A DNA stretch of 64,000 bases, from the NCBI RefSeq assembly GCF_000497125.1, contig NC_090601.1, positions 1,426,001-1,490,000 on the forward strand. Reading direction: 5' to 3'. Source of the DNA: Spironucleus salmonicida. Lineage: Eukaryota. Below, one piece after another: positions 10,950 through 64,000 of this stretch (position 1 is its first letter; every line of letters begins with the position of its first letter). The translations under genes and the position numbers were made by a program. The notes beneath the pieces were generated by a model, which searched no databases, was not told the DNA's origin, and worked only from the letters and a program-made list of their open reading frames with translations.

Positions 10950-12011
10950 ATGCAGAGGGTCAAGGAAATAACAGTACCTTTTGTTCAAGCTTCCAACCCC
11001 AAAGATATTGACTTTGCGTCCTTAGGATTCTAGTATACTCAAACTAGATCCTTTGTTATGTATAGTTATGCTAATGGTTGCTGGGACAAAGGTGTTTTGG
11101 TTGAAAATCCTAATATTCCTACTCATATTGCCACTTAAGCCTTTCACTATGGTTAAGCTGTATTTGAAGGTCTTAAAGCTTTCCGTATGGAATCTGGCTA
11201 AATATCATGTTTCCGTCCTTAAGAGAATGCTAAGCGTTTGATTCAATCTTGTGACAGATTAGTTATGCAATCTCCTACTGTCGAGATGTTCATGGAAGGT
11301 GTTGATACTTTAATCAAAGACAATATTGATTATGTTCCTTCTGCCCCTGGTTCTTTATATATCAGACCTTTCGTGTTTGGTTCTTCAGCATAGCTCGGTG
11401 TTGCCCCTTCAAAAGAATATAAATTCATCTTATTCTGTGCCCCCGTTGGTGCTTACTATAAAGGTGGTTTAACAGGTGTTTCTACCCGTGTAGTTACTGA
11501 TTTTGATCGTGCTGCTACTCGTGGTACTGGTATGTGCAAATGCGCTGGAAACTACGCTGCTAGCCTCCTTCCTCATATGTAATCCCTTAAGGTTGGTTAT
11601 CCCGTAGAACTTTATCTTGATGCTAAAACTAATTCTTTAGTTGAAGAATTTGCTACATCTAACTTCTTTGGTATTAAGAAATAAGGCGATAAGATTATTT
11701 ATTGCACTCCTTAATCTCAGTCTGTATTGCAGTCTATTACCAACTTAACTTTGCGTGAAATTGCTGAGAAAATGTTAGGATGGACTATTTCTCGTGAAGA
11801 TATCTATATAAACTAGGTTGATTAATTCGAAGAGGTTGGAGCTTGTGGTACCGCGGTTGTTTGTGTCCCCATTAAAGAAATCGTTTATTAAGATAAAGTT
11901 TTCACATTCAAGGTTGTTGGTGAGCACACCCAAAAACTTTATGACATGATGACTGGTATTTAAAGCGGTAAAGTTGAAGATAAATTTGCATGGAACCATA
12001 TTATTCAGTGA
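10950..12011 (+). CDS. ilvE: Branched-chain amino acid aminotransferase
   Basis: [40 protein letters not shown]; the conserved HYGQ Gln is encoded by TAA. Confidence 0.95.
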
Positions 12012-13635: not shown

Positions 13636-16600
13636 TCATTCATTCACCATTTTCAATAGCTTTCCTGCCAAAGTAGCAGCTCTAACTGCATTGTTTAACT
13701 TTATAGCTTGGAAAACTTCATCTCGCTACTCGCTAAAATGGTTCAACTACCTTGATTCAATAACAGAATCTGCTAATGCTAACCGCATTGTTGCCGTTCC
13801 GATAATACTCTAGTCTTAAAATACTGAATGCTTCATCAAATTAGAAAAATCCTCAAGTGTTACATTTTGACACTAAAATACAGCTAACAGTACATTCTTA
13901 TCAGAAATTACACCGAGAGCTTCGTAAAAATACTTAAATTTTTAAATACTCATAACATTGTTATTTGATTGAAGCTTGAAGTACTATAATAAATTAACTG
14001 TGAAGCCAGCTTGTAAATGAAGAATTTCAGCAGCTTATTTAAAAATAACTTCAAATATATTATTACTCTCGAGGCTAAAATCAAAGCCATTATCATAGAT
14101 ATATTACTACAGTTCCCCTTAATCATAAGTAATATTTTCTTGCTCTAACGAGTTTAATTCGGAGTTTGTAAATGATTCTAATTTCTAAAATAATTCATCA
14201 ATTATTTCTATTTCTATACCATAATTAAGTTAGGTTAAGAAAATCAATGCCTCAAAGGTCTAATATTAGTAAATTCCTACTAAAATTGAACTAATAAGTT
14301 TGGAATAAATACTAGAAATTCCATAGTTGTATTTAGCCCAATTAATAAAACTCTTACCAAAATCACCATTTTTCATTTCTAGTCGTGCAGTTCTTATTGT
14401 TTTACTTAACCATAAAGATGTTGGAATATATGTTGAACAAGGTAATTTTGCATATTACCTCAATTATGAATTTTACACAGGTATGAAAGGTAAATTTGAT
14501 TTATTTTTAGTCAGAAACTGTTCAATAAAATGGAAATCTATCCATTATATCTATGTCATAGAAGAGATAATAATAAGTTTATTATTAACTTACTATATGT
14601 TAACATTATCAGGGATAATTATATTTTCACCTAAACTTTCTATCATTTTTAAGTTACAATTACTATTAATATAGTCTTAAACAGTCTCAAACTGCAATTT
14701 AGCTTGAAACCCACTTGAAAAAATCTTATTTTTGAGCAGAAGATTTCGAGTCATAGCTTATTGTTTTTTCTATAACCGGAATATTTTCTTCTTAATATCT
14801 AGTTAACCTTTAACTAACTAATATTTTTAGCCTTCTTTAATAAGCTCTCTAATTTTAACTAACTTCTTAAAAGGATTATTATCTTGTTAGTAAACGAACT
14901 TATTTGCTGATTTTATCTGAGGTGAAATATATGTTTTCTCTGGAATCAAGATTACTTATTCCAATGATTTTTGCTACATTGGAACATTATGCTAAATATT
15001 TATAGCAAAATTTATAGCTTTCATATCTTATTCTGTCAAATATTATGATTTCTCAAGCAATTGGACGACTTTTTTCTTTTATTATGATAGTTTATCATCT
15101 AAATCAACCAATTTACTATCTTGATTTCTAAAAAGTGAGTTAGTCGAGTTCTGCTTTTTTTAATCGATATTAACCGACTACCTAGATGTTTTCATTGGCT
15201 CGCCCTTGTTATTCTCTTACTAGCTATAGACTTTATTCTGGCTTGAACCGTTCCACCTTTCATAAACCTCATCTCTCAAGCCCTCGATTTCTGTCATCAT
15301 AGTATTCATTTTTTAAAGCTTGGACACACCCTTTTGAACCTCGCCATTTTATTCACTGAGCCTCTCGACAATGGGTGCCCGCTAAATCAAATAAGTGTCT
15401 CGAACATTTTCGAACTAAACAGCTAAAGTAGACTCCTCCTGCTTCAGAATAATCAGTTTTTCTTTATACTGCTAAAAAATCATATGGTCCTCTAAATTTT
15501 GCACGTTTTGGTTCTTATACACCTTTTCCTTGCAATCTGCTATATCAGCAACGCATTAAATCTGCTCCTTGTAGTTCTCCAGCATACGATTCCGCACCTT
15601 CTTGTAGTCCAGGAGCCGCTTCGTCCGCTTTTTGGCTATTTCGTCCGTTTCGACCTCACCAGCGCGTTTTCGTTCCATCTCCTACAGGAGATCGCCCGCG
15701 CCACCACCGCCATAGATGACATTTTCGGCGTAAAAGATTTAGGCACCTGCCTCGCTCCCTGCCAGGAGCTACTCACACTTCTTGCAGATGCTCACGTGCA
15801 CCTCTTCGAAGTTGCGCAGCTACTACGTGAAGTCGACACCCAGCTTAGTATTTTTCCGCATCTGGAACTTCGGGATTTCTGCCAAAACGGAGTCGCCACC
15901 GAACCTCGTCAACTGCTCAAGCACGCTCGCATGCTGAGCCTGCAGCACCTTTACGGCGTTCAGCGCCCGCAGGTTGAATGCAGTTCCTACAATGTCCAGG
16001 ATACCGCGGAACTACACCTTCTGCGGCTGCTTCAGCGCCTTCATTTTGTCGATTTCGGCACTCACAGCGCCCTGGAACGCGGCCAGAACCCGCTGCTCCG
16101 CTTTTGCGGTTTCGAGGCTCTATGAAATTTACGATTTCACGTAGTTGGCCTTGTACTTTTTGTAGCGCGCCTTGAACTTGAGCATCTCGTCGTAGATCTG
16201 CTTCGCCGCTTTCTTGCTGACAAATTTCTGCTTTATTTTGACCTTCAGCGAACCCTGCTGGTCCGTTTCGCTGATTGAATCGCTGATTTCAAAGTTTTCC
16301 GCCAGAAAGTCCTCCGAGGTATCCGAGAGCTCCAGATCGATCAGATCTATGATGTCGTCCAGCTTGCGTTCGTCCTGCATCTCATCCACGAGGCACGCCG
16401 GCAGCTTCTTGACCGAAATATAGCACTGCTGGGTGAAGTCCTGCGGCGCTGCGGCGTTGCGGGTGTACCTCCCACCGCCGTACTGGGCGGTGGAGAATAG
16501 CTGTGGGATTTAGCCCACAACCTCGGCCTTGGAGACCGTGCATGCACCCTCCGTCGCCATGTACGCTTGGTAGATCTCGCCCTTCAGGCCATCGTTCTGG

Positions 16601-17541
16601 ACGCGCAAATGCGTGTTCTCCGCCTCAAGCTCCTAGAGGTCGAATTCGACCTCTCCACGCGCAGCGGCGATGTTCTGCATGTTGTTGTCTACCTAGTGCT
16701 GCATGTTATGGGCCTCCTTCAGCAGGTGTGCGTTACGCTCCGCCTCGAGCAGCAGCCGGTTCTGCAGCTGCTCTCCCTGCAGCTGCCAGGTCTTTTCCTG
16801 CTTTTCGGCCTTGATCCGCGCTTTCAGCGCGGCCTCGAAACGGCTACGCAGCTGCGTCATTTCCCCGCAAATCGCGATATTGGACCTGCTGAGCGCAAGC
16901 TTCTCAGAGAAGAACTCCTGGGCCTGGAGCACGTGGTTTCTAATTGTCTTCTCGTGGCCCAGAATCTCCAGCCGCTAGCGCTCCGTCGCGCCCTCGAGGG
17001 ACATTATTTTCGCTTACTGAGCGTCGAAATCGCCCATAACTTGCGAGTGGAGCATCCGCAGTTCTTTGAACTTTTGCTGGTCAACTTCGACCTTTTGCTC
17101 CAATTCGTCCAGTTTGCTCCGCAGCGAATCTGCATTTTTCCAGCCGTCGTCTCTGGTTTTGACCAGTTTCTGCACATCGATGGTCCCGAATCTGGCCTCC
17201 GCAGAGAGGTAGTCGATGACTTTTTGCAGCGTCTGCGCCGCAGTCGCATCCAGAATCTCTATCTGCGTTAATGCTGCTGCCGCAGCGCTCAAATATAGCT
17301 GTTAGGCATCGGGGGTCGACTGTGGCGGTGTGAGTTGATATAGGAGCCCATCTGGTGAAAAAACTGGGCAGAACTTCGTCCTAAACGCGGAGGACATTTC
17401 TTGTTTTGTTAGGTTTAGGGCATGGGGAATATACTTCGGCCGGCGTTATGGGGTAGATTTGTGCTTTACTAGCCTATTTACTGGTCTGAGCATAGGTGAT
17501 AGAGCACGGGCGCGTTTGAGCTCTGAATCAGTAATGTCCAT
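13636..17541 (-). CDS. Large coiled-coil hypothetical protein (~1301 aa)
   Basis: Listed ORFs 17014, 16693 and 16129 (-) are in one frame, joined by TAR codons. Confidence 0.75.
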
Positions 17542-17625
17542 TTTGTTATTATTATATATTATGTATTATAGTTAGAATATAGTTTGTCTTGAAAATAGGC
17601 TCGTCTTAATAATTTAGTACATAAT

Positions 17626-20600
17626 TCACTTTATCCTCCTAGCCGTTTTCGACCTCTATTGGTAATTAAGATTGTTTTCATTTTTCATTGATGAAACTTT
17701 AAACATGCACCCATCAAAGTTACGAGATTTTCTTACTAAACCCACTGAATTTTAACCAAACATAAATTCTATTGCTTTCGCTTCATTTCCTTTATCAGCA
17801 AGTCTTTGCTCATAATAAATTTTAATAGCATCTAAATCATTTTACAGTGTTATTATTTATCGTTCTAAAATATTAATTTTTTATTAATCAACATCACGAG
17901 GGGTCTCGTTAAAAAATTCTTCTTGTAATTCTAGTTACCTTTTCAGCGTTAACTCCTATTTCTATAAATTTTCCTCCTTTACGGTTGTTAACGTTAATTG
18001 CTTTTATTATGATAATACCGTCGCTTTAAGTTTCTAAATTTCATTTAATTAATTCTAGATACTAATATCTGACTTAATCAAGCTATAGTGTGTATCAGTA
18101 TTAACTTAGCATACCTACACACCTGTATCACAGCTTTCTATTAAAGTTTGGTGTTAATCATCCTGTACAGTTAATTAATTTATATCTAAATCTTCCATCT
18201 ACTATTCTTGTTAAAGTAAATTGAAGCTTGACCTTGGACACGTATTTTCTAATTTCTTATAAGTACGATATAGGTAACTATTTTGTATTATTGTTTCATC
18301 ATCCTTATAAAGCTCTAATATAGAATTAACTAAATCTTTCCCCATTATTTTAGAATTCACCATACCTCTCTCGCCTACCGAATATTATTTCAAAATCTGT
18401 AACATTGTCTATACTTATTCGTTTCTTTATCTAGCAATATGCAAAGATTAATTAACCTATTCCTCTAAAACTTTAACACAATTTTGCAGATGTACCACCT
18501 TAAATAAAACAGGTGTATCTTTCATTTCGCGAAGTGTTTAATGCAGCTCGTGTGAAACTACTAATACCGATGAATAAAGTTTAGCATATCCTTTATACCT
18601 ATCTCTAACTTCTTGTAATACTTATTAGTATAATTATTATCGTCCTTCTTCAATTTTTAAATCAATTAAATCTTAGAAATCTATAATTGAAGGACAATTA
18701 TGACTCTTCTATTTTTCTAATAATAAATCATATTTTTATCTAATAGTATAAAATTTGTTTAGTGTTTAACGTAAATCAAACTTGAGCATTTATGCTTATG
18801 TGTAGTAATTGTTATAATTTTCCTATAATGTGGTGAACTTTCTCTTCATATCCCAGTTTTCTAAAAGAGTTTAGTTGCAGACTACTTATTAATCTAAATA
18901 CTGTTCCGAAATATTTTTAATCTAATTTTAATTTTCTTCTTTTATTTTTGTTAATTCATTTGTATGATCTAAATATACCTATTCAATATTGACGCATTCA
19001 GCTTATTGAGTGAAGTCAAGTAATTATTTTGGAGGATTAAAATTTACAAATGAAGATTAATCCTAATACGTTAATATCTCAGTTTAGGTAAATGAATTTT
19101 GGTAGTTATTAGTAATCTATTATGTAAGTTTACTAAGAAATAAATCCTTATCAACACCATTATTATCTACTTCCTACAAATCATTAGGACATAATTTGAT
19201 TTAATTTGATTGACCTTATACAAATTTTAGTAATTTTTATCTCTACTCTGAATAAATTGGATTTTACTTAAATTATTCAGATTATAATTCTAAATTAACA
19301 ACTTCTATTTATTCAATTGGAGGAAGTTGACTTAACGGTGTTGGTGATTTAATTCGTTACATATCAATAGTACTGCATCCTGAATCTTCTTTTTCATCAA
19401 TATCTTAAAACGATAGCGCATCAGTACTTTTTTCTATTTATTAATTTTTATATATTCTGCGATTACTAAGTCGCGATCCATTACGGGATCCACTTCTAGA
19501 CTTTAGTGGTGATTTTCTAGGGAGAATCAATTTTTCGCCCTCACTAGGAAACATTTTTTGTTAGCTAAGGCTCTTAATAAGTTGACTCAAATTCTCCAGT
19601 TATGGTAGTTTACTAAAATCGCTATCATCATATATTTGCCTATAAAAATCAGGATTTTCCAAAATTGAAGCTTTTTTAAGTATATAATCTGGGAAATACT
19701 AAACGGGGTGTTTACCACTTACTGCCGCCACCAAAAGTGCTATTTCAATCGCATCTACTTAAATTCCACATGTTTAACTTGGAATTACCGTAGCTTCTTA
19801 ATATAAAATTTAGCGCTCTAAAGTCTCATCATTACTTAAACAGATATCGTGGTGGGATAATACTAATGATGTGTCTTATATACCTATTTAACCAGAAATA
19901 TTATTATGAATAACTTAGAAATTACTTATAGGAGAAGCTTACTAACTAGAATATTTATTTTATAGGGCTTTTAACTACTCAGCAAAGCTACTTTATGCTA
20001 ATATCATTTACTTGTTATCAGATAATTAAATCTGCTAAAGTTCTGACTATAAGCGTAATCCTGTATCTGAGTCAATTATTGTATATGGATTTCGCTAAAT
20101 AGAATTTGCTTCATCTATTAAATCCTAAATTCGAATCCCTTTGACACTCATTTTTGCGCCAATAAGTTTTGTTTGATAAGCCTATATCATGGCCATATAG
20201 TATTGAACAGCATATTCATAATGCCCTTTAGTTTTTTCATGGTCTATCTATAAAACTGCGCATCGCTATTTCATTGTCAGATACTACTCATGTGTTACAA
20301 TAAGCTTCCTTTGGACTAGTTCTAATGTCCTAAAAGTGTTATTATATAATCTATTTTATTCATCTGCCTATTATTCTAGAAAAGTTCTTTCCTTTTTAAG
20401 ATTTGAATTTTATTCCACTAATCCTATTTTAACTCTATCTAGTAGATAAATTCTGTCCTCTAGTCTCGCTTACTAAAGAGCATGTTTTTCTGCATCGTTT
20501 TGTAATAATGCTTTCTCATCTTTAAGCTGAGATAAAGTAGGCTGAATATCAGCTAAAACTTCTTACATTAACCTCTCTTTAGTCCCTTAATTCCTCATAT

Positions 20601-24029: not shown

Positions 24030-25493
24030 TCATTCATCATTATTTTCGACTATGCTTTTCTCTAATTCCTCTGCCCGCTATTAAGCTTTTATCTTATATA
24101 CACTATACTTTATTTCATTTGATCTTCTAACAAAACCTATAATAACTATAACTACGGTTACAATCAAAATAAAAGCTCCAATAATGAGGCCTGTAATGAC
24201 ACCTGCAGTAAAAATATCTAATAGTGATTCTTAGTAGCATAGTAAGCTTCCGGATCTAAAAAGCCACCCATCAATACATTCGCTGCAACTTCCAGAGCTA
24301 TTTAGTTTATATCCTTATAAACAAGTAGCACACGCTGAAAAATCTTCTGTGCATTAATCACAATGAATTTAAAGTCCACAAATACACCCAAAGCTCTTAT
24401 TCCCAGCCTAGTCACAACTCTTAATCTCATTACCAACAGTATCGCAATAATGCCCATTAGTAGCTATAACTTAGCACTATTTCCAGCATAACCCATCAAA
24501 TCCAAGTTTAAACCCTTAATTACATTTTCTGCAAAATTTATCGCTTCCCAAACAATCTAAACAATTAGCAACTTAGCAAGTAGCATAACTAACACAATCC
24601 CCAGAAGGTGAAATTTAAGTATTACACTAAATGCATATTTAGTTATGGTTAAAATAATATCCTGGAAGACATGCCCCGCAGACAGAAACATTACAATTTC
24701 CACAATGCACTGCTCCAGAACAAGGACAAGCTACTGATAAATTATTGATATTTTCTGAGTTCGGACACTACTAGCACGAATTGTCAATAAACAGCTAATT
24801 GCTCTAACATACTCCACACGTCTATCCTGTGACAACGCATGTTTTACAAAAAGGTACAATTTTTCCTCCACAAGTGCATCCTTCATCGGAAGTATGTTAG
24901 TCGCATAACACACAGGTATCACCTGACTTGTAATAGTTATTATCGCAAACTGTGCATTTTCCATCAGTATCCAATTTACTTCCTTTCTTACATGTTTCAC
25001 ATTATGAAGAATCTGAAGTCTTGCAGGTAGCACAATTTAACGACTCCCCACATTAACAAGAATTAATCATATCAACTTCGCATTTCTGACAGCTCCCATC
25101 AATCACCCCATATTCCTACGCACATATCACACAACCACGACTACCGCCGCCAGTACATTGATTACATGATGCATCACAGTTTTTACATGATCCGTTTTCC
25201 ATGAAAAAGTTCTTTTTGCAACTAATGCATGCGAAAAGATTACAGTTACAACCTTCAGGGCAAACTGAGCATTGATTATTTGAAAGAATAAATGTTTCTT
25301 TGCACTTATTGCATATTTGAGAAGAGCATTCAATACAGTTTTTCACTACTTAATTAGCTTTGCAAACACAGTTTTCTTTGTCACATGTATCGCAGGTGAT
25401 TGTATTTGAACAAGTTGAACAAGCGTTTGCGCATGCACGGCAGGATCCACGCGCAGTATCATAAAACTCGCGATCTTTGCAGTTTTCAGCCAT
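24030..25493 (-). CDS. CXXC cysteine-rich membrane protein (diplomonad CRMP/VSP-like)
   Basis: Dense CxxC repeats, a C-terminal TM segment (AGVITGLIIGAFILIVTVVIVIIGFV) and a short cytoplasmic tail. Confidence 0.9.
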
Positions 25494-25708
25494 TAGTAAA
25501 ATATTTAGATATTAGATAAATATTATATGCTGATTAATTAATAATATATTGAAATAATAAGAATGGTATATACGATAATATATAATTAAAATAATATATT
25601 ATAGTTTAAAATTTTAGTTGCAATTACTAAATACATTTACTTGTCCTATATTATATTATTATATCATTATATTGATTGCGGTTCTTCTTGTGTTTTTTCT
25701 ATTTAGAA

Positions 25709-26461
25709 ATGCACCGTTCGAATAAGTTTATACCGCAAAGACACATTTCATCAAATTTTGATGAATTATTAACATAAAACCAACTTACAACTTTTAGTCC
25801 CCTTTAGAGATATAAATAATAATATTAACGTTATGTAAACCATTAATATACCTCATTCACAGAATCTACTTTAGACCGATAGATACGCTTAAAATATTAC
25901 TATCTAAATCTTGACGCTACAACTCCACTCAAATAAGATCCATATTCAATTAAAGAAAAATGTGAAGATCTTCTTTTTATTAATAAGCTGAATGCTATTT
26001 AAACTATTTAAGGTACTGGTATCAATAGTGAACTTATATTAGAAGATTTGAATTTAAGTTTAGACTTCGATTTGGATGATAATGCTATTAATGGTTAGAA
26101 AATAATTAACCTCCCATAACCTTTAGATTAAAGTATTTAATTACAATCATTTGCTGTTGAAACATAAACATAATAACTGGAAAACTTGTCTATTACATCT
26201 GAGTAGTCGATTTAGGTAGCCTCTGAGCCAATTACAATTTAGAAATTAATCCCTTAAGCTTTATCAGTGCAAAATTAATTGACAATAACAAAGCTTGAAT
26301 CTCTTGGCTTTAATACATAAACTGAATCGAAAGCAGCGCTTATATAGACAGTTGATTCACGAAAAAGTGATTTCGGTACATAAGTATATCATGAACTTGA
26401 TGTCAAAAAAATAGACTTTTCCTTCGTAGATTCTATTTTATAAGGAATTAAAAAATAGTGA
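25709..26461 (+). CDS. Hypothetical protein (250 aa)
   Basis: Open under table 6; ends TAG TGA. Confidence 0.55.
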
Positions 26462-39684: not shown

Positions 39685-40599
39685 ATGTCAATAGATGTTG
39701 ATCGACTCATTGCTTTAGCTTCTGAAGGGAAACTGCTATCTGAGTAACAAATAGGATAAATATGTGGATTACTACGTCCTATTTTATCAGGTGAACCGAA
39801 TGTTGTGAATATTTCTGCTCCTTGTACAGTAGTTGGAGATATTCATGGACAGTTTTATGATCTACTCGAAATGTTTAGATATTGTGGTCGTCCTCCATAT
39901 GCAAATTATCTATTTTTGGGAGACTATGGTGATAGAGGTTACATGTCAGTTGAATGTACAACATTACTGTTGCTTCTTAAACTTAGATATCCAAAAAGAG
40001 TAATTTTACTTAGAGGAAACCATGAATCGCGCTAAGTTACATAAGTTTATGGATTTTACGATGAAGTTATACGTAAATATGGAAATCTTACGGTTTGGAA
40101 GCATTTTATGAATATTTTTGATTGCTTACCTCTAGTTACTGTTGTAGAAAATGTAATTTATTGCGTGCACGGGGGATTATCACCCTCAATAGATACTATC
40201 GAATAAGTTAAAAAGATAGACAGGTTTTAAGAAGTACCTCATGACGGTCCAATGGCCGATTAAATGTGGTCTGATCCTGAAACCAGACAAGGATGGGGAA
40301 GATCTCCAAGAGGTGCCGGTTATACTTTTGGCTAAGATGTATCAGAACAATTTTTAAGACAAAATGGCTTGAAAATCATTTGTAGAGCACATCAATTAAC
40401 AATGAATGGTTATCAATGGAACCACAATAAACAAGTAGTAACAATATTTTCAGCTCCAAATTATTGTTAGAGAAGCGGAAATCGGGCTGCAGTAATGGAA
40501 TTAGACGACAGAGCTAATTACAGCTTCATTTAATACGAATTTGCACCCAGAAAAGGCGATGTTTATGTCGGTAGAAGAGCACCTGAATATTTTTTGTGA
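39685..40599 (+). CDS. PP2A-C: PP2A-family Ser/Thr phosphatase catalytic subunit
   Basis: [35 protein letters not shown] and C-terminal RRAPEYFL. Confidence 0.93.
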
Positions 40600-51496: not shown

Positions 51497-52168
51497 TCAC
51501 TCAGCAGCCTTCAATTTCACGAGAAAATTGTTCTGTCCGTCCAGCAAATTGTTGAAAATCACAGCAGGAACGTTTCCGCACGGATCGCAGTGGCACACGC
51601 TCGTGACCCTGCACTTTCCTGGCTCAATTTCCTCGTAGAGCAGCCCGCTCAAAAGCTGTCCCCTGACGGCCTTTTCGACGAATTTTTGGTCACAATCTAC
51701 ACTAGCGGTAACGACGAGCACCTTCTGCGCCTCCCCGCTCAAATCGAACATCGTCCTGCCCATCGTAAACTCCCTTCTTGCGACTAAAGGAACGGAAGAA
51801 TCCATGCACTAATATAACATATATGTATTATTGTCCAAAATCTTTCCTTTTTCACACTCCAAAATCGCTTTTTTGGCGTCGTCCGAAATCGACGTGAATT
51901 TTCTGTAAACGGCCCTATTCTTGTCCTCGGGGCGCACCTCTTTGATCTTGTGGTCAAAAGCGAGCAGTTTCGCAACGGTCGAATCGATCAAAATCTCGCC
52001 TTTGATGGTCTCGAATTTGGAATTTGGCGTTGGGGCGTAGGACGCGTCGACAGCGTTTTTGTAGAGTTTGTGGTTCTTGAATGGGAGCGCAAAAAGTTCT
52101 AGTGCGCGTTTCTTGTGCGTTTCCGCGAGTTTGGTGGCGGTTTCGAGCGCTGTGGACGGAAATTCCAT
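51497..52168 (-). CDS. START-domain lipid-binding protein
   Basis: Listed ORFs 51809 and 51497 join through TAG; LVARREFT and CHCDPCGNVPAVIFN. Confidence 0.85.
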
Positions 52169-52313
52169 ATATGAAAATAGGAAGGGATAGTAGTATTATT
52201 GCTTAATATTATATAATAATTGGAATTGGGCGAATATGAAAAAATACGAATATGGAGTGTTTGGAAAGGATATAATAAGATATAGTTAAGTATATCATAA
52301 TTATAGTTAACAT

Positions 52314-52386
52314 GCTTCTATGGTGTAGTGGTTAGCACAGTGGACTTTAGATCCACCAGACATCAGTTCGAATCTGGTTAGAAGTG
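52314..52386 (+). tRNA. trnQ-UUA: tRNA-Gln(UUA), decoding UAA (and possibly UAG)
   Basis: Cloverleaf: acceptor GCTTCTA/TAGAAGT, D stem GTGT/GCAC, anticodon arm GTGGA-CT TTA GA-TCCAC, T arm ATCAG-TTCGAAT-CTGGT. The D-arm and anticodon-arm sequence is Gln-like. Confidence 0.92.
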
Positions 52387-52522
52387 AATTTTTCAATTAT
52401 ATTAATGAGAGAATATTACGCGAATGGAGCAATTAGAAAAATGGGTTGATTCAATTTTGTGTGCAGCAGATATTTTGAATGAGTAGGATAGGCTAAAGAC
52501 AATAGTAAATAGAATCCAGAAA

Positions 52523-53539
52523 TCACTCGTTCTGTAAAAGACATTCGCAGCATCCATAGAGGCCAATGTTATCCTGAAGAATAACGCTGATTCTTCTGTT
52601 TTTGACAATATGAGAGAGTCTACCCTTGTCATAAAGACCGTCCATAAACTTTTTGTTTACAAATGCATCCTTGAGAAGATCCATGTTCTTTGCCATGATA
52701 CCACCAGCAATAAATATTTCAGATGGCAAGAAGCCAGCACAAAGGTCAGAAATAGCACGACCGTAGAAGTTGAAGAAAATAGCCATGATCTTCTTGAAGG
52801 TCTCGTCACCTTTGTTAGCATTGATAGCAACGTGAGATGGCTGGTCATCTTCAGAAGCAGGAAGCGAGATTAGCTCAGAAACCATTTTGTCAGAACCACC
52901 AGTAACACCAAGATAAGCATTAAGCTGGGCTTCGGTTTTACCCATGAAGAACTGGGCAATGCAAGCAATGCCATTTCCAGATACGAAACGTTCATAAGAT
53001 ATGTGTTAGGAGTTGTGTTTTTTCTGCATGAAAACCACTAATTCATATTCAATAGGGCAAGATGGACCAAAACGAAGATGTCCACCTTCGCAAGGGAAAA
53101 CAGAAGTTTCAGCAACGTAACCTACACCAAGACCAGTACCTGCACCAAGATATAACTTGACGCCGTTATGTAAAGCATTGGGTACAATGATATCAACGGC
53201 TTCATTTGTGACGAATCTGGAAATAATCCACCATCCGATTGCCTGGAAGTCGTTAATGAATTTGACAGAGAAGCCCAGAGTAGAAGCAAATTCCTCAGAG
53301 TTATACTTGTATGCAGTATTTTCATTAGTCAATGTACAGTGTTTACCATCAACTGGTCCAGCCATAGCCAAACAGCAAGATTTTATACCTTTGATGCTAT
53401 GTTTAGAAATAAAATCTTAAATAGCAGAAATAAGAGTGGGGTGTTCACGAGTAACATAATACTCAGTATGAATCATATCTTTGCCATTTATAGAAGACAG
53501 ACGAAGGTTAGTACCACCAATATCACCTGTGATATACAT
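52523..53539 (-). CDS. glk: Glucokinase (bacterial Glk type)
   Basis: GDIGGTNLRL, AMAGPV, FINDF, GAGTGLG, CEGGH, IAGGI. Confidence 0.93.
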
Positions 53540-53746
53540 TAAGGGGAAAGGAATCTTCGATTTAAGATCAGTTATGAATGTTCGACTATTTAAGATCTAT
53601 CGCCTACTATTAGTTATAAGTCTAATAACTTATGACTAATTATTTCATACTATTCTTGATTATTATATTTTGATAGTTTAATCTTAAAGCTGTATTATAT
53701 TTATATATTATAATTTTTGATAGCAGCATCTAAAACTAAAAACTAG

Positions 53747-54391
53747 TCACTTTGTCCCATAACTAACACCAAACTTTTCCATGTTTAATTAAAATTATAT
53801 CTTGCTTATCCTTTCAATTTCATTTTAAATAATTTATCTTTCATAGAGCTCTTCAACTCCTCTAAATATTGTTGAATTTCGCTAAGGAGACAGCCTTTTA
53901 TTGCTAAGATTAAATTCTTTATTAGTAACGTCTACCTTAAGTTTCGACTTAAGTAATATAAATTTCTAAGAAAATTCTTTCAGAAATATTCGCTATCTTG
54001 GTTGTTTAAATTTTCTATAGTATTCGAATTAAGATTAAAAATCTGAAAACAGACCAAGCTGGTCATTTATTTATCTTGGCTCGGATGGAACAGACCTAAA
54101 TATATACGTTTTCAAAGGAACTTTTTCAGGCTACTTTTCAAACTAACTATCTAAATAACTGTTGCATTTGCTGGTGTTCTTGACTCTATATGTAAATTAT
54201 CGCAATTATTTAGTTTTTTAAGGAATTTTATAATATTCAGGAATCTGTTGTATAACTGTCTAAACAAATGCTTTAGACGGCGTTGTGAAGTTATAATAGG
54301 GAAGCTAAAATATAGACTATTTTATCCTGATACGTGATTCACGCGTGCTAAATTCTGGTGTTAGAAAAATCTGATTAACCGATTTCTACAT
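53747..54391 (-). CDS. Hypothetical protein (214 aa)
   Basis: Open under table 6; ends AAG TGA. Confidence 0.5.
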
Positions 54392-54569
54392 TTTAGAACT
54401 AAAATCATAATATATCTAATTTTTATTTTTATTTTAGTTATCTGGGGACAGAATAATCACATTATTTATCCTATTAAATATATTCTTATATAGTAAACTC
54501 CTAATTTCTACGGTTTTTACATTTTAAACCTATTGTAAATTTTTCCAACCCTGTGTTTAACCTCAAATA

Positions 54570-56039
54570 TCACTCCTTCACGAACCCACCGCCGCAGCCA
54601 CAGCCGGTGATGAACACGCAGTCTTCCATTTTCGTCTCACCTTTTGCCTGGTAAAATGCAACCATTTTTTTCATGAATTCATCTTTCTGCTCCTCTTTGA
54701 GCAGAGCAACTGCAAAACCGCCGAGGCCGGCGCCGGTGAGCCTGGCACCAAAGGCACCGCATTTCCTACTCTCTGCGATGACCTCGTTCAGCTCAGCGCA
54801 GGAACACTCGTAGAGCGAGTCGCAGGAGGTCTGGGAGTCGTTTATGAGCGTCGCCAAGTCGCCAATCAGGTCCTTCGACTTAGCCTGGTTTTTGAGTAAA
54901 AGTTCAAACTTCTGCGCTCTGTCTGCCTCGGAATAGACGTGCTAGAGGCGCTTTTTAATGACCAGAACATGCTCGGGTTTCACGTTTTCGTAGCGGCCCA
55001 AAAGCGAGTTTTCGACAATTTTGGTGCAGAAAAGGTCCTTAACGAGCTGCTCGACGCTACTGTAGCCTAGAATGTCCTTTAGCTCAGCCAGGGTGCATTT
55101 TTCAGGCAACTTTTCGCAAAATTCGAGCATCTCGCTGGGTGACCCTTTTTAGTATAATTATTATATGTCCAAACACATATCTATTTTTTCTCTACCTTTA
55201 ACGCATGTGACGTACTTTGTACCGCTTTTCAAGCTCCTTAAGATAGCGCATCCAGCGCGGCACTCAGCCACTCTCTAGTTATAGAAGTTAGCGGCCGAAT
55301 TGGCTTTCTTGCTATCCTTCAGTGAGTTCATGCACGCAACGAGTACGCCATCTACGAATTTCTCGCTTTTGACGTCCAATTTCGGCACGAAATTGATAAC
55401 TGAAATCTGCCCTTTTACGGCATTCAGCGAAATGGCCTAGTCCATGCCACCGCCTTCGATGGCAACCAGGCTCTCGCTTTTTGCGACAATCGCAGCCAGG
55501 CGGTTTTTGTCAATTTCCTCACCGATAAAGGAGAGGAAAGCCAGGGCTGCGCAGCATGTAAGAGCCGACGATGAGGACAATCCGGAGCCCAAAGGCACGT
55601 TCCCGGTGCCGATTAGCGTGATCTGGGACGACTCAAAAGTGTTGGGAAGGAAGATTTTCCGCTCCTCGCAATACACCGAAGCAGCGTGGAAACCGGCGCG
55701 AACGTACATGGACCAGGCATCATTCGGAACTGCAATTTTCGTGGGGGCAACTTTGTAGTCGAAATCGTCTGCCTTGAAGAGCTGCTCTTCGATGTGGCGC
55801 AGCTGGACGTGCTGGCGGCCCTTGTCCTTGCAAACGGCGAAGATGAAGTCGTTTTCGAGAGCGATTGGCGACACCTGGTAACCATTGTAGTCTGTGTGCT
55901 CGGAAATGATGTTTACACGCCCGGGGGAGCGTGCAAAAGTTGCAATCGTGAGATTGTGCGTTTGTGCATATGTTTTGAGGGCCTGGTAGCGCTCAAACGC
56001 TTCTTTTGGAGCCGTATAGATCTCATTTATCTTTTTCAT
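54570..56039 (-). CDS. galK: Galactokinase/GalNAc kinase (GHMP family)
   Basis: PGRVNIISEHTDY, PLGSGLSSSSA, GGGMDQAIS (Gln encoded by TAG), GARLTGAGLGG. Confidence 0.93.
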
Positions 56040-56327
56040 TAGATTTGATGAAGTGGTGAAAATAATCAGGCCTAAAATGTCGTTTAAATATGCAGTTAGT
56101 TACTGAAAACGAAATCTGCAAAAATAGGTTATTATAAGTTTAATAATAGGACATTAAATTTTGTGAAACGAGTTTAAGTCCAAATTCAAATTCAATGAAC
56201 CACCGATTTCCGATTTTGCTTTAAAAACCTATTTTAAACCTATTTTTACAAATTTTTATATTAATATTATATGATAATTAATACAAAATCGCTCCTTTCC
56301 ACTCCAAAAACCCCACAATTAAATTCA

Positions 56328-61165: not shown

Positions 61166-62677
61166 TCACAGTCCCCGTTTCTTGGTTTAAAATTTTCCTT
61201 TTTATTATCTTTCTCTCCATTAGTCAGTTTTACCGTTTCTTCTTTAGGATACTTCATCCATTCTTTAAAGCCTGTTGGCATCTCTCATTTTTTAAGTTTT
61301 TCGTCTTCGAGCAGCATCAATTTCTGCATCCATTTCATCGATTTTAGAGTGTAGTAACTTCGATGTAAGTTCCTTCCTATCCATTAACTCGTCTTTTACA
61401 AATCTGCACTTCGTAGGTACCTATGTAGTGATCTCAACTTCTGGATTTTTTGCTTTAATTTTCTCTTCAAATAAGTTGGAATTATCAACATCATGTATTT
61501 TTACACCCTAGATGCTAATTTCACAAGCAATTTCTTCGTAAATTAACATTACTGCTTCATCAAGCTTAATGTCGTTGAAATTCACCTTTTAAACTATCTC
61601 ATCATCCCTAACTTACCACCCATTGCTATAGCAATAGCAGAAATAATGCCCATAACCCAAACTAACCCCAGAATGACAAATAACGGCTTTTAGCTAATGT
61701 GTGCTCTTCCCCTGTTTAGAACTCAAGCTACTGACAACCATTTAGGCTAAATTCTGACCCTGTCCACCTTCACTCATCGTCTTAATGCTCACTTCGTCAA
61801 TCCCATTAGTTAAGTTAATTTTTTCTGGAATTTCAATATTCTTATTGACTTTCTAGCCTAATTCGTTCCATCTCTGGAGTTGAATAATAAAGGAGCTGCT
61901 TGCTTGAATAATTTTTTAGTATTTAAAAATCGTAGCATCTTTCCCGCAAAATTCGCAGTTGTAGCCAGTTATTTCAACTGGTTTTAAAAATTCTTAAAAT
62001 GACCTTTTTAGTGTTTTACTAATTGGTAAAAGTTAACTTCTACTAATATAATGCTAATTTTTAGTTCCTTTACAACGTTGGCAAACAATTTTGCTCTCAA
62101 TAACGCAACCAAAAAGTTGCTCGATAGCAGTTGTTTAGTTGCTTTAGGGTTAATTTGCACTTTCTACTTCTTTAAAATGGAAGGCATCTATTACTCGCAG
62201 CAATAGTTCGGTTGCATCAGATTATTGGAGTGGTGACATATCAAATAGTTTTAAATTTGCATAGAAAAGTTGCGGTAAAATAACTTTTTATTTCGAATTT
62301 TGAAGAGTAGTTAATGAGGAAAGAAGTGGTGATTTTGTGGCAGTTTAGAAATAATCTGATGATATAAGAGACCGAAAACGGCGGAGCGAAAATAAAGCTT
62401 AGAGTACCGTGTTGGCATAGCAAGAAGCACCAGTATTTTGGAAACCGAATTGTGGATGTGCTTTATGAGTTGAAATAACATTTTTGAATGATGAAGGATC
62501 AATAATATAAAATGCGTGTTTAAGAGTAGACTCTGTTATTGTATGTTTTGGGATCTTATATAAACCTTCCTATTGAAAATTTGTTAAGTCGTCCCCGATA
62601 TAACGCTCAACGAATTTGAGAGTACGTAAAGGTTGGTTAGATTACAGACGTTGTAGTGGAACCAAAATGTTTTCCAT
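61166..62677 (-). CDS. Ubiquitin-specific protease (USP family)
   Basis: Cys box GFQNTGASCYANTVLQAL (last Gln encoded by TAA), His box HSGVSLGYGHY...DDE and basic tail. Confidence 0.9.
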
Positions 62678-62832
62678 TTGTGAAGTGGACGTTGGAATGA
62701 AAGAATACATTATTATTATATAAATATTTATTATAATAAGTCAATAGAGTGTTGATAAAATTAATGCTATTATATTTGATATTACTGGTATCTATATAAA
62801 TTGATTAAATTATGCTTAAGTAAAAGAATAAA

Positions 62833-62915
62833 TACTAACCGCGGGATTCGAACCCGCGAGGACTACTGTCCATTACGACCTGAACGTAACGCCTTAACCT
62901 CTCGGCCAGATTAGC
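62833..62915 (-). tRNA. trnL-CAG: tRNA-Leu(CAG)
   Basis: Acceptor GCTAATC/GGTTAGT, anticodon arm TTACG-TT CAG GT-CGTAA, long variable arm, T arm GCGGG-TTCGAAT-CCCGC, discriminator A. Confidence 0.93.
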
Positions 62916-64000
62916 TATAATTAAATATTAAATTATACACTATATATAAATACTTAGCTATAGGAATTATTAGAAACCTCACTAAAATATCACAAATATT
63001 CAGTATCAAAGTCATTTACTATCTCTATCTTATTTGAAGTATCTCTTAATCCAATTTTCTTTTTACCTTATTAAGTGGGAGATGGGCAATACGATTGCCT
63101 TTCAGCAGTTTTTTCTTAGTTGAAATACTTCATTTTTGAAATAAATTTTTATAAAGACAATATATTTTTAATATATATACACTTCTGAAATACTACGATT
63201 ATTTGTATATTGTAATTATGTTAATAATAAATATATTAGATCTAGTAATGAAAAGCGAATATTATTTACATAAATAGAATAACTAAATTATTTATATCAG
63301 TTTTTATGAAAATTTATGATAAATCCATAGGAAGTTAGTTACACTGCTGAAAATTCTATAAATAAACATAATGTTGAAAAGTCTGACAACATATTTACCA
63401 TAAAATTGATCATATCCAAATATTAGATTTAAATAATTCAAGCAAAATAATGTGCTATATGTTAAAATTTAACTATCGTAATAATAGTAATTAACTTCTG
63501 ATATTTTTATCGTTATTTGTTTTCGTATTGTTTGATATTTTTTAATCAACTTTCCATAATATCATTAATACCTTTTAATAAAGTATACATTTACACAAAA
63601 ATGCTACTTTCTATACTTTAGACATACACAATTATCACAACAAAAGGTATTGATAATTTTATCAAAATCAATTAAGAACATGCTTTAAATCAACTAATTA
63701 ATACAAATATTATTCCAGATATTGAAATCCCACTTTTAGGCTTCAAAATACTTCTCAAGAATGTTAGACTAGTTAATGTCCAGGCAGGTGATATTTCTAC
63801 ATTTTTAGATCACAATAAGTAATAAATATCATTAAAAATGTCAAAAATAGCCATGGAGCTCACCTTTGAGTTTTAATTAACCTAATAATCTTTCCCATAT
63901 TCATCAGATATGGGAACAGGGTAAATTATCTTAGAAAAAGTTAGTGCATCAATTATTGGAGTATTTAACGAGTTATTTACTGTTTCTCCAGTTTCACTTA

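Follow-up and report, generated by a model that had tools for sequence, protein, structure and literature searches.

A UUA-anticodon tRNA gene is the most likely UAA decoder in a stretch of hexamitine DNA

The DNA analysed here, a stretch of 64 kb to which we refer as the window, carries a 73-nt tRNA gene at 52314..52386 (+), with the anticodon UUA, a Gln-like body, a G1.U72 first pair, G73 and G37. It was recognised both by the Rfam family RF00005 and by Aragorn, which labels it tRNA-Stop(tta). We consider it highly probable that the gene is nuclear and functional, that it encodes a glutamine tRNA in which the anticodon UUG has become UUA, and that its product is charged with Gln and pairs with UAA, and probably also with UAG by wobble. 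That is, the tRNA is most likely the cognate UAA decoder, because the gene is intact, TAA and TAG are sense codons in the window, TAA fits Gln in alignments of conserved proteins, the body of the tRNA resembles that of tRNA-Gln, and the gene appears to exist in multiple copies.

In the mechanism that we propose, RNA polymerase III would transcribe the gene from its internal promoter elements and stop at the run of T just downstream, after which the transcript would be trimmed and CCA added. The host glutaminyl-tRNA synthetase (GlnRS) would then charge the tRNA with Gln, and the charged tRNA would pair with UAA, the codon that serves most often for Gln in the window. By analogy with Tetrahymena, UAG would probably also be read, via wobble at U34, leaving UGA as the sole terminator.

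Structure, copies and surroundings of the tRNA gene

The gene matches the covariance model RF00005 over its full length (model positions 1-71 of 71), with a score of 63.3 bits and an E-value of 2.3e-11, the latter calculated for both strands of the 64 kb window against 4227 families. This score lies 34 bits above the Rfam gathering score, which is 29, and zero non-standard pairs are flagged. Aragorn, run as the sequence-only reading of this DNA had proposed, also calls a tRNA with the anticodon tta, at 52313-52387 (+). Aragorn adds one base on either side; the register adopted here is that of Rfam, with U8 and a 7-bp acceptor stem adjoining a 5-bp T stem.

In this register, the acceptor stem (GCUUCUA/UAGAAGU) consists of a G1.U72 wobble and six Watson-Crick pairs, the discriminator is G73, at 52386, and the anticodon loop reads C32 U33 U34 U35 A36 G37 A38 (CUUUAGA). 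The anticodon TTA (U34 U35 A36), placed at 52347..52349 (+) by the Rfam alignment, is complementary to UAA. The stem pairs are standard in 21 of 21 cases in the same alignment, and the universal positions of tRNAs are present, namely U8, A14, G18 G19, U33, G53, the T-loop UUC, A58 and C61. With this cloverleaf, this conserved core and a score above the curated threshold, the sequence belongs to the tRNA family RF00005; 52314-52386 is an intact, full-length tRNA gene. The complete cloverleaf with TTA at 52347-52349 that the sequence-only reading had described is thus borne out by the full-model match and by the Aragorn call, while the G1-U72 first pair and the G discriminator, which it had also pointed out, can be read directly from the sequence and the Rfam alignment.

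The minimum-free-energy fold of the tRNA is no better than that of shuffled sequences (z = -0.49, with 66 of 200 shuffles folding equally well), so the evidence for the tRNA is the covariance model and not thermodynamics. tRNAs commonly fold no better than shuffled sequence, and the result is therefore neutral.

Eukaryotic nuclear tRNA genes do not encode CCA and have a T run shortly past their 3′ end, and T runs terminate transcription by RNA polymerase III. The gene at 52314-52386 has both of these features. As read from the sequence, it is without an intron and without an encoded CCA, and a run of five T, the likely RNA polymerase III terminator, is found at 52389..52393 (+), three bases past the discriminator, with AAT between G73 and TTTTT. 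Within the gene, the D-arm region (tRNA positions 8-19; 52321..52332 (+), sequence TGGTGTAGTGGT) and the T-arm region (positions 52-62; 52365..52375 (+), sequence AGTTCGAATCT) are the presumed sites of the internal A box and B box of RNA polymerase III, respectively.

The gene stands alone in a spacer of 354 bases (52169-52522), on the strand opposite to both of its neighbours. One of these is a gene for a START-domain protein (51497..52168 (-); Pfam PF01852, E 2.2e-11), whose start codon faces the tRNA. The other is a glucokinase gene (52523..53539 (-); Pfam PF02685, E 4.8e-57), whose stop codon faces it. Four sequencing runs, taken by guess to be of RNA, contain parts of 52000-52800. The contigs of runs X5 and X6, presumed to be of poly(A)-type RNA, span 52000-52163 (to 52149 in X6) and 52510-52800 and skip the tRNA spacer; contigs of this kind cannot reveal a 73-nt tRNA. 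From 52510 on, in the 3′ part of the glucokinase gene, up to 5 differences are seen in contigs of a DNA run and of two runs presumed to be of RNA, and contigs over 52510-52800 run into a different left flank. These observations suggest that a second, highly represented copy of the glucokinase gene lies elsewhere in the genome.

X1, a DNA run from the same organism and possibly the source of the window assembly, contains 52314-52392 as a separate contig of 79 nt with a depth of 35.4, the unique flanks having depths of 10.2 and 11.7 (contig depth is not copy number). This unit, i.e., the tRNA and the start of the T run, is identical to the window, with zero differences. Two further flanks adjoin it on the left (at 52311 and 52314) and two on the right (at 52392 and 52396). 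Such a contig pattern is what several identical gene copies give in a de Bruijn assembly. A separate contig of higher depth, with other flanks on both sides, thus indicates that the tRNA gene is probably present in more than one identical copy. Several copies would fit the heavy use of TAA.

Different flanks are also seen with dispersed repeats, and the gene could thus be a silent or decaying copy, i.e., a pseudogene or a tRNA-derived repeat, with the UAA decoder supplied by other loci. G1.U72, G73 and G37 are indeed unusual for a tRNA-Gln. However, a unit that is identical over 79 bases fits a maintained gene family, a terminator-like T5 run directly follows the gene, and decay is at odds with 21 standard stem pairs of 21, intact universal positions and a score 34 bits above the gathering score. 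We consider a silent copy very unlikely, and a functional gene remains our preferred reading.

When the 64 kb window is scanned permissively with Rfam (E up to 1), two tRNAs in total are found, the UUA gene and a tRNA-Leu(CAG). The latter, at 62833-62915 (-), has a long variable arm and scores 52.1 bits in Rfam; it sits within a long, probably spurious table-6 ORF at 61789-63015 (-).

TAA and TAG as sense codons

Translated with the standard stops (table 11), the window contains 7 ORFs of at least 150 aa; with TAA and TAG as sense codons (table 6), it contains 49 ORFs of at least 250 aa. Pfam domains (e.g., UCH, Aminotran_4, Metallophos, GalK and ODAD1) extend across in-frame TAA or TAG. Such codons are crossed in many of the ORFs, including those for a galactokinase, a class IV aminotransferase, a ubiquitin hydrolase, an epimerase, an MFS transporter, an ODAD1 protein, a PP2A-type phosphatase, a GPN-loop GTPase, a WD40 protein and the glucokinase. 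In 13 ORFs of the window, we counted 359 TAA, 171 TAG, 133 CAA and 105 CAG, i.e., TAA represents 359 of 768 Gln-type codons (47%), the TAA and TAG counts being somewhat inflated if, as is possible, some ORF starts were set too far upstream. We dropped as evidence the fact that all table-6 ORFs end in TGA, which follows from the definition of the ORFs. TAA and TAG are sense codons in the window; the genes of the window do need a UAA decoder, as had been supposed from the sequence, in that their ORFs are open only with TAA and TAG as sense.

The proteins encoded in the window are nearest to named hexamitine sequences, as those of a hexamitine diplomonad should be. Among named homologues, the aminotransferase is 61% identical to that of Hexamita inflata and 48% to that of Giardia, and the phosphatase is 68% identical to that of H. 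inflata and 61% to that of Spironucleus salmonicida. The G+C content of the window, about 31%, is near the 33.4% that Table 1 of PMC3916229 lists for S. salmonicida. From these features, we assign the window to a hexamitine diplomonad. According to PMC1805757, Spironucleus, Hexamita and Trepomonas read both TAA and TAG as Gln, and S. salmonicida uses UAA more than any other Gln codon. That hexamitines read UAR as Gln by means of dedicated tRNAs, a premise of the earlier reading, accords with the relevant portions of PMC1805757 and PMC5304391.

Several other features of the window may be recorded here. The aminotransferase (10980-12011 (+)) has, beyond diplomonads, next-best homologues that are nearly all environmental, and the few named non-diplomonad ones are mostly bacterial (e.g., Kiritimatiellae, 48%), with two algal. 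Such a pattern is often taken to mean that diplomonads acquired the gene by lateral transfer. At 24030-25856 (-), the window encodes a protein that is rich in Cys, with many CxxC repeats and a single C-terminal membrane span; it has zero Pfam family matches, and presumably resembles the variant-surface-protein-like families of diplomonads. Two islands, at 52400-56100 and 16000-18000, have a G+C content of 44-48%, versus about 27-35% elsewhere in the window, and their genes use few TAA or TAG (13 CAG versus 3 TAA in galactokinase; 2 TAA and 0 TAG in glucokinase). These island genes fit the codon bias, linked to expression or to foreign origin, that is described for S. salmonicida in a portion of PMC1805757.

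The meaning of TAA and TAG was assessed by translating conserved genes with X at these codons and aligning the products to homologues. The branched-chain aminotransferase gene (10980..12011 (+); 10 in-frame TAA and 3 TAG) was aligned to 119 homologues, and the PP2A-type Ser/Thr phosphatase gene (39685..40599 (+); 9 in-frame TAA and 1 TAG) to 120; both would be clients of the tRNA. Two of the aminotransferase TAA columns have Q in 119 of 119 homologues, and in the phosphatase, TAA columns have Q in 117, 119, 111, 109 and 85 of 120. When the 19 TAA columns of the two enzymes are pooled, the log-likelihood is -44.8 for Gln and -76.7 for the next residue, Ser, a difference of about 32 log units. 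Eight TAA columns are strongly conserved, with one residue in at least 90% of homologues; the residue is Q in six of these, L in one (115 of 120; here Hexamita, too, has Q) and D in one (110 of 119). In the ubiquitin hydrolase, the TAA codons at residues 104 and 163 face Q in all 4 of the printed PDB alignments, among which there are three distinct enzymes; a homologue search with this protein at E <= 1e-10 returned the window's own protein only. Judging from these columns, TAA behaves as Gln. The host thus uses as a sense codon for Gln the codon to which the anticodon TTA at 52347-52349 is complementary, as expected of a UAA decoder.

For TAG, the alignment evidence for Gln is thinner than for TAA, and mixed. 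Q is found in 5 of 5 printed alignments at the TAG of the GGMD-Q motif of galactokinase, and likewise in 5 of 5 at the TAG of the PG-Q motif of the GPN GTPase. In the aminotransferase, one TAG column is Q in 110 of 119 homologues and another is E in 115 of 119. Altogether, of the four TAG columns of the two large alignments, one has Q, another E (115/119) and a third Y (117/120), while the fourth is variable; the log-likelihood over these four places E first (-12.6) and Q second (-14.3). The column with Tyr corresponds to the TAG at 40468-40470 (+), residue 262 of the phosphatase, where Tyr is found in 117 of 120 PP2A-type homologues and Phe in H. inflata. This single column hints either at a replacement of Tyr by Gln at a conserved site or at TAGs that may not all be read alike.

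A variant of the main reading, which we regard as possible but somewhat unlikely, is that the UUA tRNA carries Gln and reads UAA only, UAG being left to a tRNA-Gln(CUA) encoded elsewhere. Some modifications of U34 restrict wobble, and TAG is common enough (171 in 13 ORFs) that a dedicated UAG decoder would be useful. Moreover, the annotation of S. salmonicida includes a tRNA-Gln(CUA) gene, according to PMC5304391. On the other hand, neither Aragorn nor the permissive Rfam scan (E up to 1) finds a tRNA with the anticodon CUA in the 64 kb window, and the UUA-anticodon tRNA of Tetrahymena suppressed both UAA and UAG in earlier work to which PMC11687900 refers. We thus favour the reading in which the UUA tRNA pairs with UAA and probably also with UAG.

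The Gln-like body and its unusual positions

The body of the tRNA was compared with that of metagenome tRNAs from at least 120 loci that share its 18-base D-arm; the contigs are environmental, and isotypes are labelled by anticodon only. In the 120 loci listed, Aragorn identifies 83 tRNAs, 68 of which have the D-arm motif. Among these 68 listed tRNAs, 40 are Gln (37 UUG and 3 CUG) and 26 are of other isotypes, including Ser (7), His (5), Ile (3), Glu (3), Val (2), Phe (2), Asp (2) and a SeC type (2); the remaining two have stop-codon anticodons, one CUA and one UUA. Identity was counted over 47 positions outside the D-arm, the anticodon and the variable loop, in this sample preselected by the D-arm. 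Among the matches listed, the UUA tRNA shares 23-32 of the 47 positions with 18 distinct Gln tRNAs (mean 28.9), and 17-32 with 16 distinct tRNAs of other isotypes (mean 21.7); the difference in this listed sample has a Mann-Whitney p of 2.8e-5. By this comparison the body is Gln-like, being nearest to tRNA-Gln(UUG/CUG) in a listed environmental sample. The Gln-like body noted from the sequence alone therefore stands, both in the 40 Gln genes among the 68 listed D-arm sharers and in the means of 28.9 versus 21.7 of 47 positions.

In some ciliates, UAA or UAG stands for Glu, Lys or Tyr, and the tRNA of the window could be charged with one of these or with another amino acid in place of Gln. The D-arm is common to 26 of the 68 listed tRNAs that belong to other isotypes, including 3 Glu; G73 and a weak 1-72 pair are atypical of eukaryotic tRNA-Gln; and a few TAA or TAG codons fall at conserved D, E, L or Y columns. 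Outside the D-arm, however, the body is nearer to Gln tRNAs than to others, and the codons themselves point to Gln, which across 19 TAA columns leads every other residue by about 32 log units and occupies 6 of the 8 conserved ones. Gln is also the residue assigned in hexamitines, according to the passages on the code in PMC1805757 and PMC5304391. We consider it extremely unlikely that the tRNA carries an amino acid other than Gln, and we return to the Gln tRNA in what follows.

Three positions set this tRNA apart from tRNA-Gln. They were compared in 61 well-paired listed tRNAs that could be parsed, including 40 Gln genes. Pair 1-72 is G1-C72 in 37 of the 40 listed Gln genes, versus G1.U72 in the UUA tRNA. 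The discriminator of the listed Gln genes is U73 in 37 of 40 and A73 in 3 of 40, and in 0 of 40 is it G73, the base found in the UUA tRNA. Position 37 is A37 in 40 of 40, versus G37. Since G73 occurs in none of the 40 listed Gln tRNAs and 36 of 40 combine G1-C72 with U73, the acceptor end is as atypical as had been suspected.

Among the matches listed, the sole other UUA tRNA (L041) has a weak A1-U72 pair and G73. The CUA tRNA among them (L039) has G1-C72 and U73, and 7 of the 7 bases in the 5′ strand of its acceptor stem match the window's tRNA. The tRNAs at these two metagenome loci have Gln-like bodies, and their surroundings resemble those of nuclear genes, with AT-rich flanks (150 bases read on each side) and a T run immediately after the tRNA. 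A scan of prokaryote genome contigs for Gln-like UUA tRNAs gave a single hit, on a Dysgonomonas MAG contig, which we dropped because it has mismatches in the T stem and at G1/A72. This hit is probably a decayed copy of a eukaryotic tRNA-Gln, misbinned into a bacterial MAG.

Position 36 has to be A in any UAA decoder. The replacement of G36 by A36 does not argue against Gln where GlnRS has adapted, and is to be expected for tRNAs of the reassigned-codon class. Of the E. coli anticodon-loop identity elements U35 and G36 (PMC9976931), the UUA tRNA has U35, with A36 at the next position and G37 instead of A37. Table 1 of this 2023 identity review gives the bacterial Gln identity set as G73, U1-A72, G2-C71, G3-C70, G10, U34, U35, G36, A37 and U38, and the same table contains no eukaryotic Gln set. 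As reported in a portion of PMC5304391, mammalian GlnRS failed to charge the tRNA-Gln(CUA) of Tetrahymena. Because of this failure, and because A36 and G37 replace G36 and A37, the GlnRS of the host would have to be adapted; its gene lies outside the 64 kb window.

The three unusual positions raise the idea that the UUA decoder was re-tuned at the acceptor end and in the anticodon loop, beyond one anticodon change. A weak 1-72 pair and G73, as in the bacterial GlnRS set, could by analogy compensate in charging for the loss of G36, and G37, perhaps as m1G, could strengthen the weak A36-U pairing with the first base of the codon. This idea follows from the occurrence of G73 and of G37 in 0 of 40 listed Gln(UUG/CUG) genes, and from the weak 1-72 pair and G73 of the other UUA tRNA, L041, which the CUA tRNA, L039, lacks. 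It is a tentative one, and we judge it unlikely. In open-access full text, we found no description of the acceptor end or of position 37 of hexamitine UAR decoders.

Relation to known decoders of reassigned stop codons

A dedicated tRNA is the component that turns a stop codon into a sense codon. The presence of the UUA tRNA beside its client genes confirms that the window is to be translated by table 6, with TGA as the sole stop, which is of practical use for annotation. The reading of UAR as Gln and the tRNAs involved have been described for ciliates since the 1980s, and since 1996 for hexamitines; the gene in the window adds no new principle. What remains of interest is how a eukaryotic GlnRS accepts an anticodon without G36, and G1.U72, G73 and G37 are three concrete positions in this regard.

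With the bacterial tRNA-Gln identity set, the window's tRNA shares, by analogy only, G73, a weak first pair, G10 (paired with C25), U34 and U35. It differs from that set in having G.U rather than U-A as the first pair, C2-G71 and U3-A70 rather than G2-C71 and G3-C70, and A36, G37 and A38 rather than G36, A37 and U38. Another comparison is with standard tRNA-Gln(UUG/CUG), as represented by the 40 listed environmental genes, in which the 18-base D-arm is identical and which also have C32, U33, U34, U35 and A38. In its anticodon stem, the window's tRNA comes near the type that is common among the listed comparison tRNAs. Standard tRNA-Gln has G36, whereas the window's tRNA has A36, and the variable loop is of 5 nt in the latter versus 4 nt in the commonest listed comparison sequence.

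The UUA tRNA of Tetrahymena thermophila, as described in the work cited by PMC11687900, has the same anticodon and serves a code in which UAR likewise means Gln. It is therefore a model for the window's tRNA, with an independent origin in ciliates, and the two are likened by description rather than by sequence. The tRNA-Gln(CUA) of S. salmonicida (SS50377_t0098; described in PMC5304391) is likewise encoded by a hexamitine and dedicated to a stop codon that has been reassigned; it is regarded as derived from a standard tRNA-Gln by one anticodon change. Compared on the basis of that description, its CUA anticodon should read UAG only, whereas the UUA of the window's gene is cognate to UAA. Finally, genes for tRNAs that decode UAA and UAG were already found in Hexamita by Keeling and Doolittle (EMBO J 1996), as noted in a passage of PMC1805757. 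They belong to the same hexamitine group, in which UAR means Gln, and are genes of the same kind, the likeness being again one of description and not of sequence. A UUA decoder gene in a hexamitine is thus of an already known kind, and an expected component of the genome.
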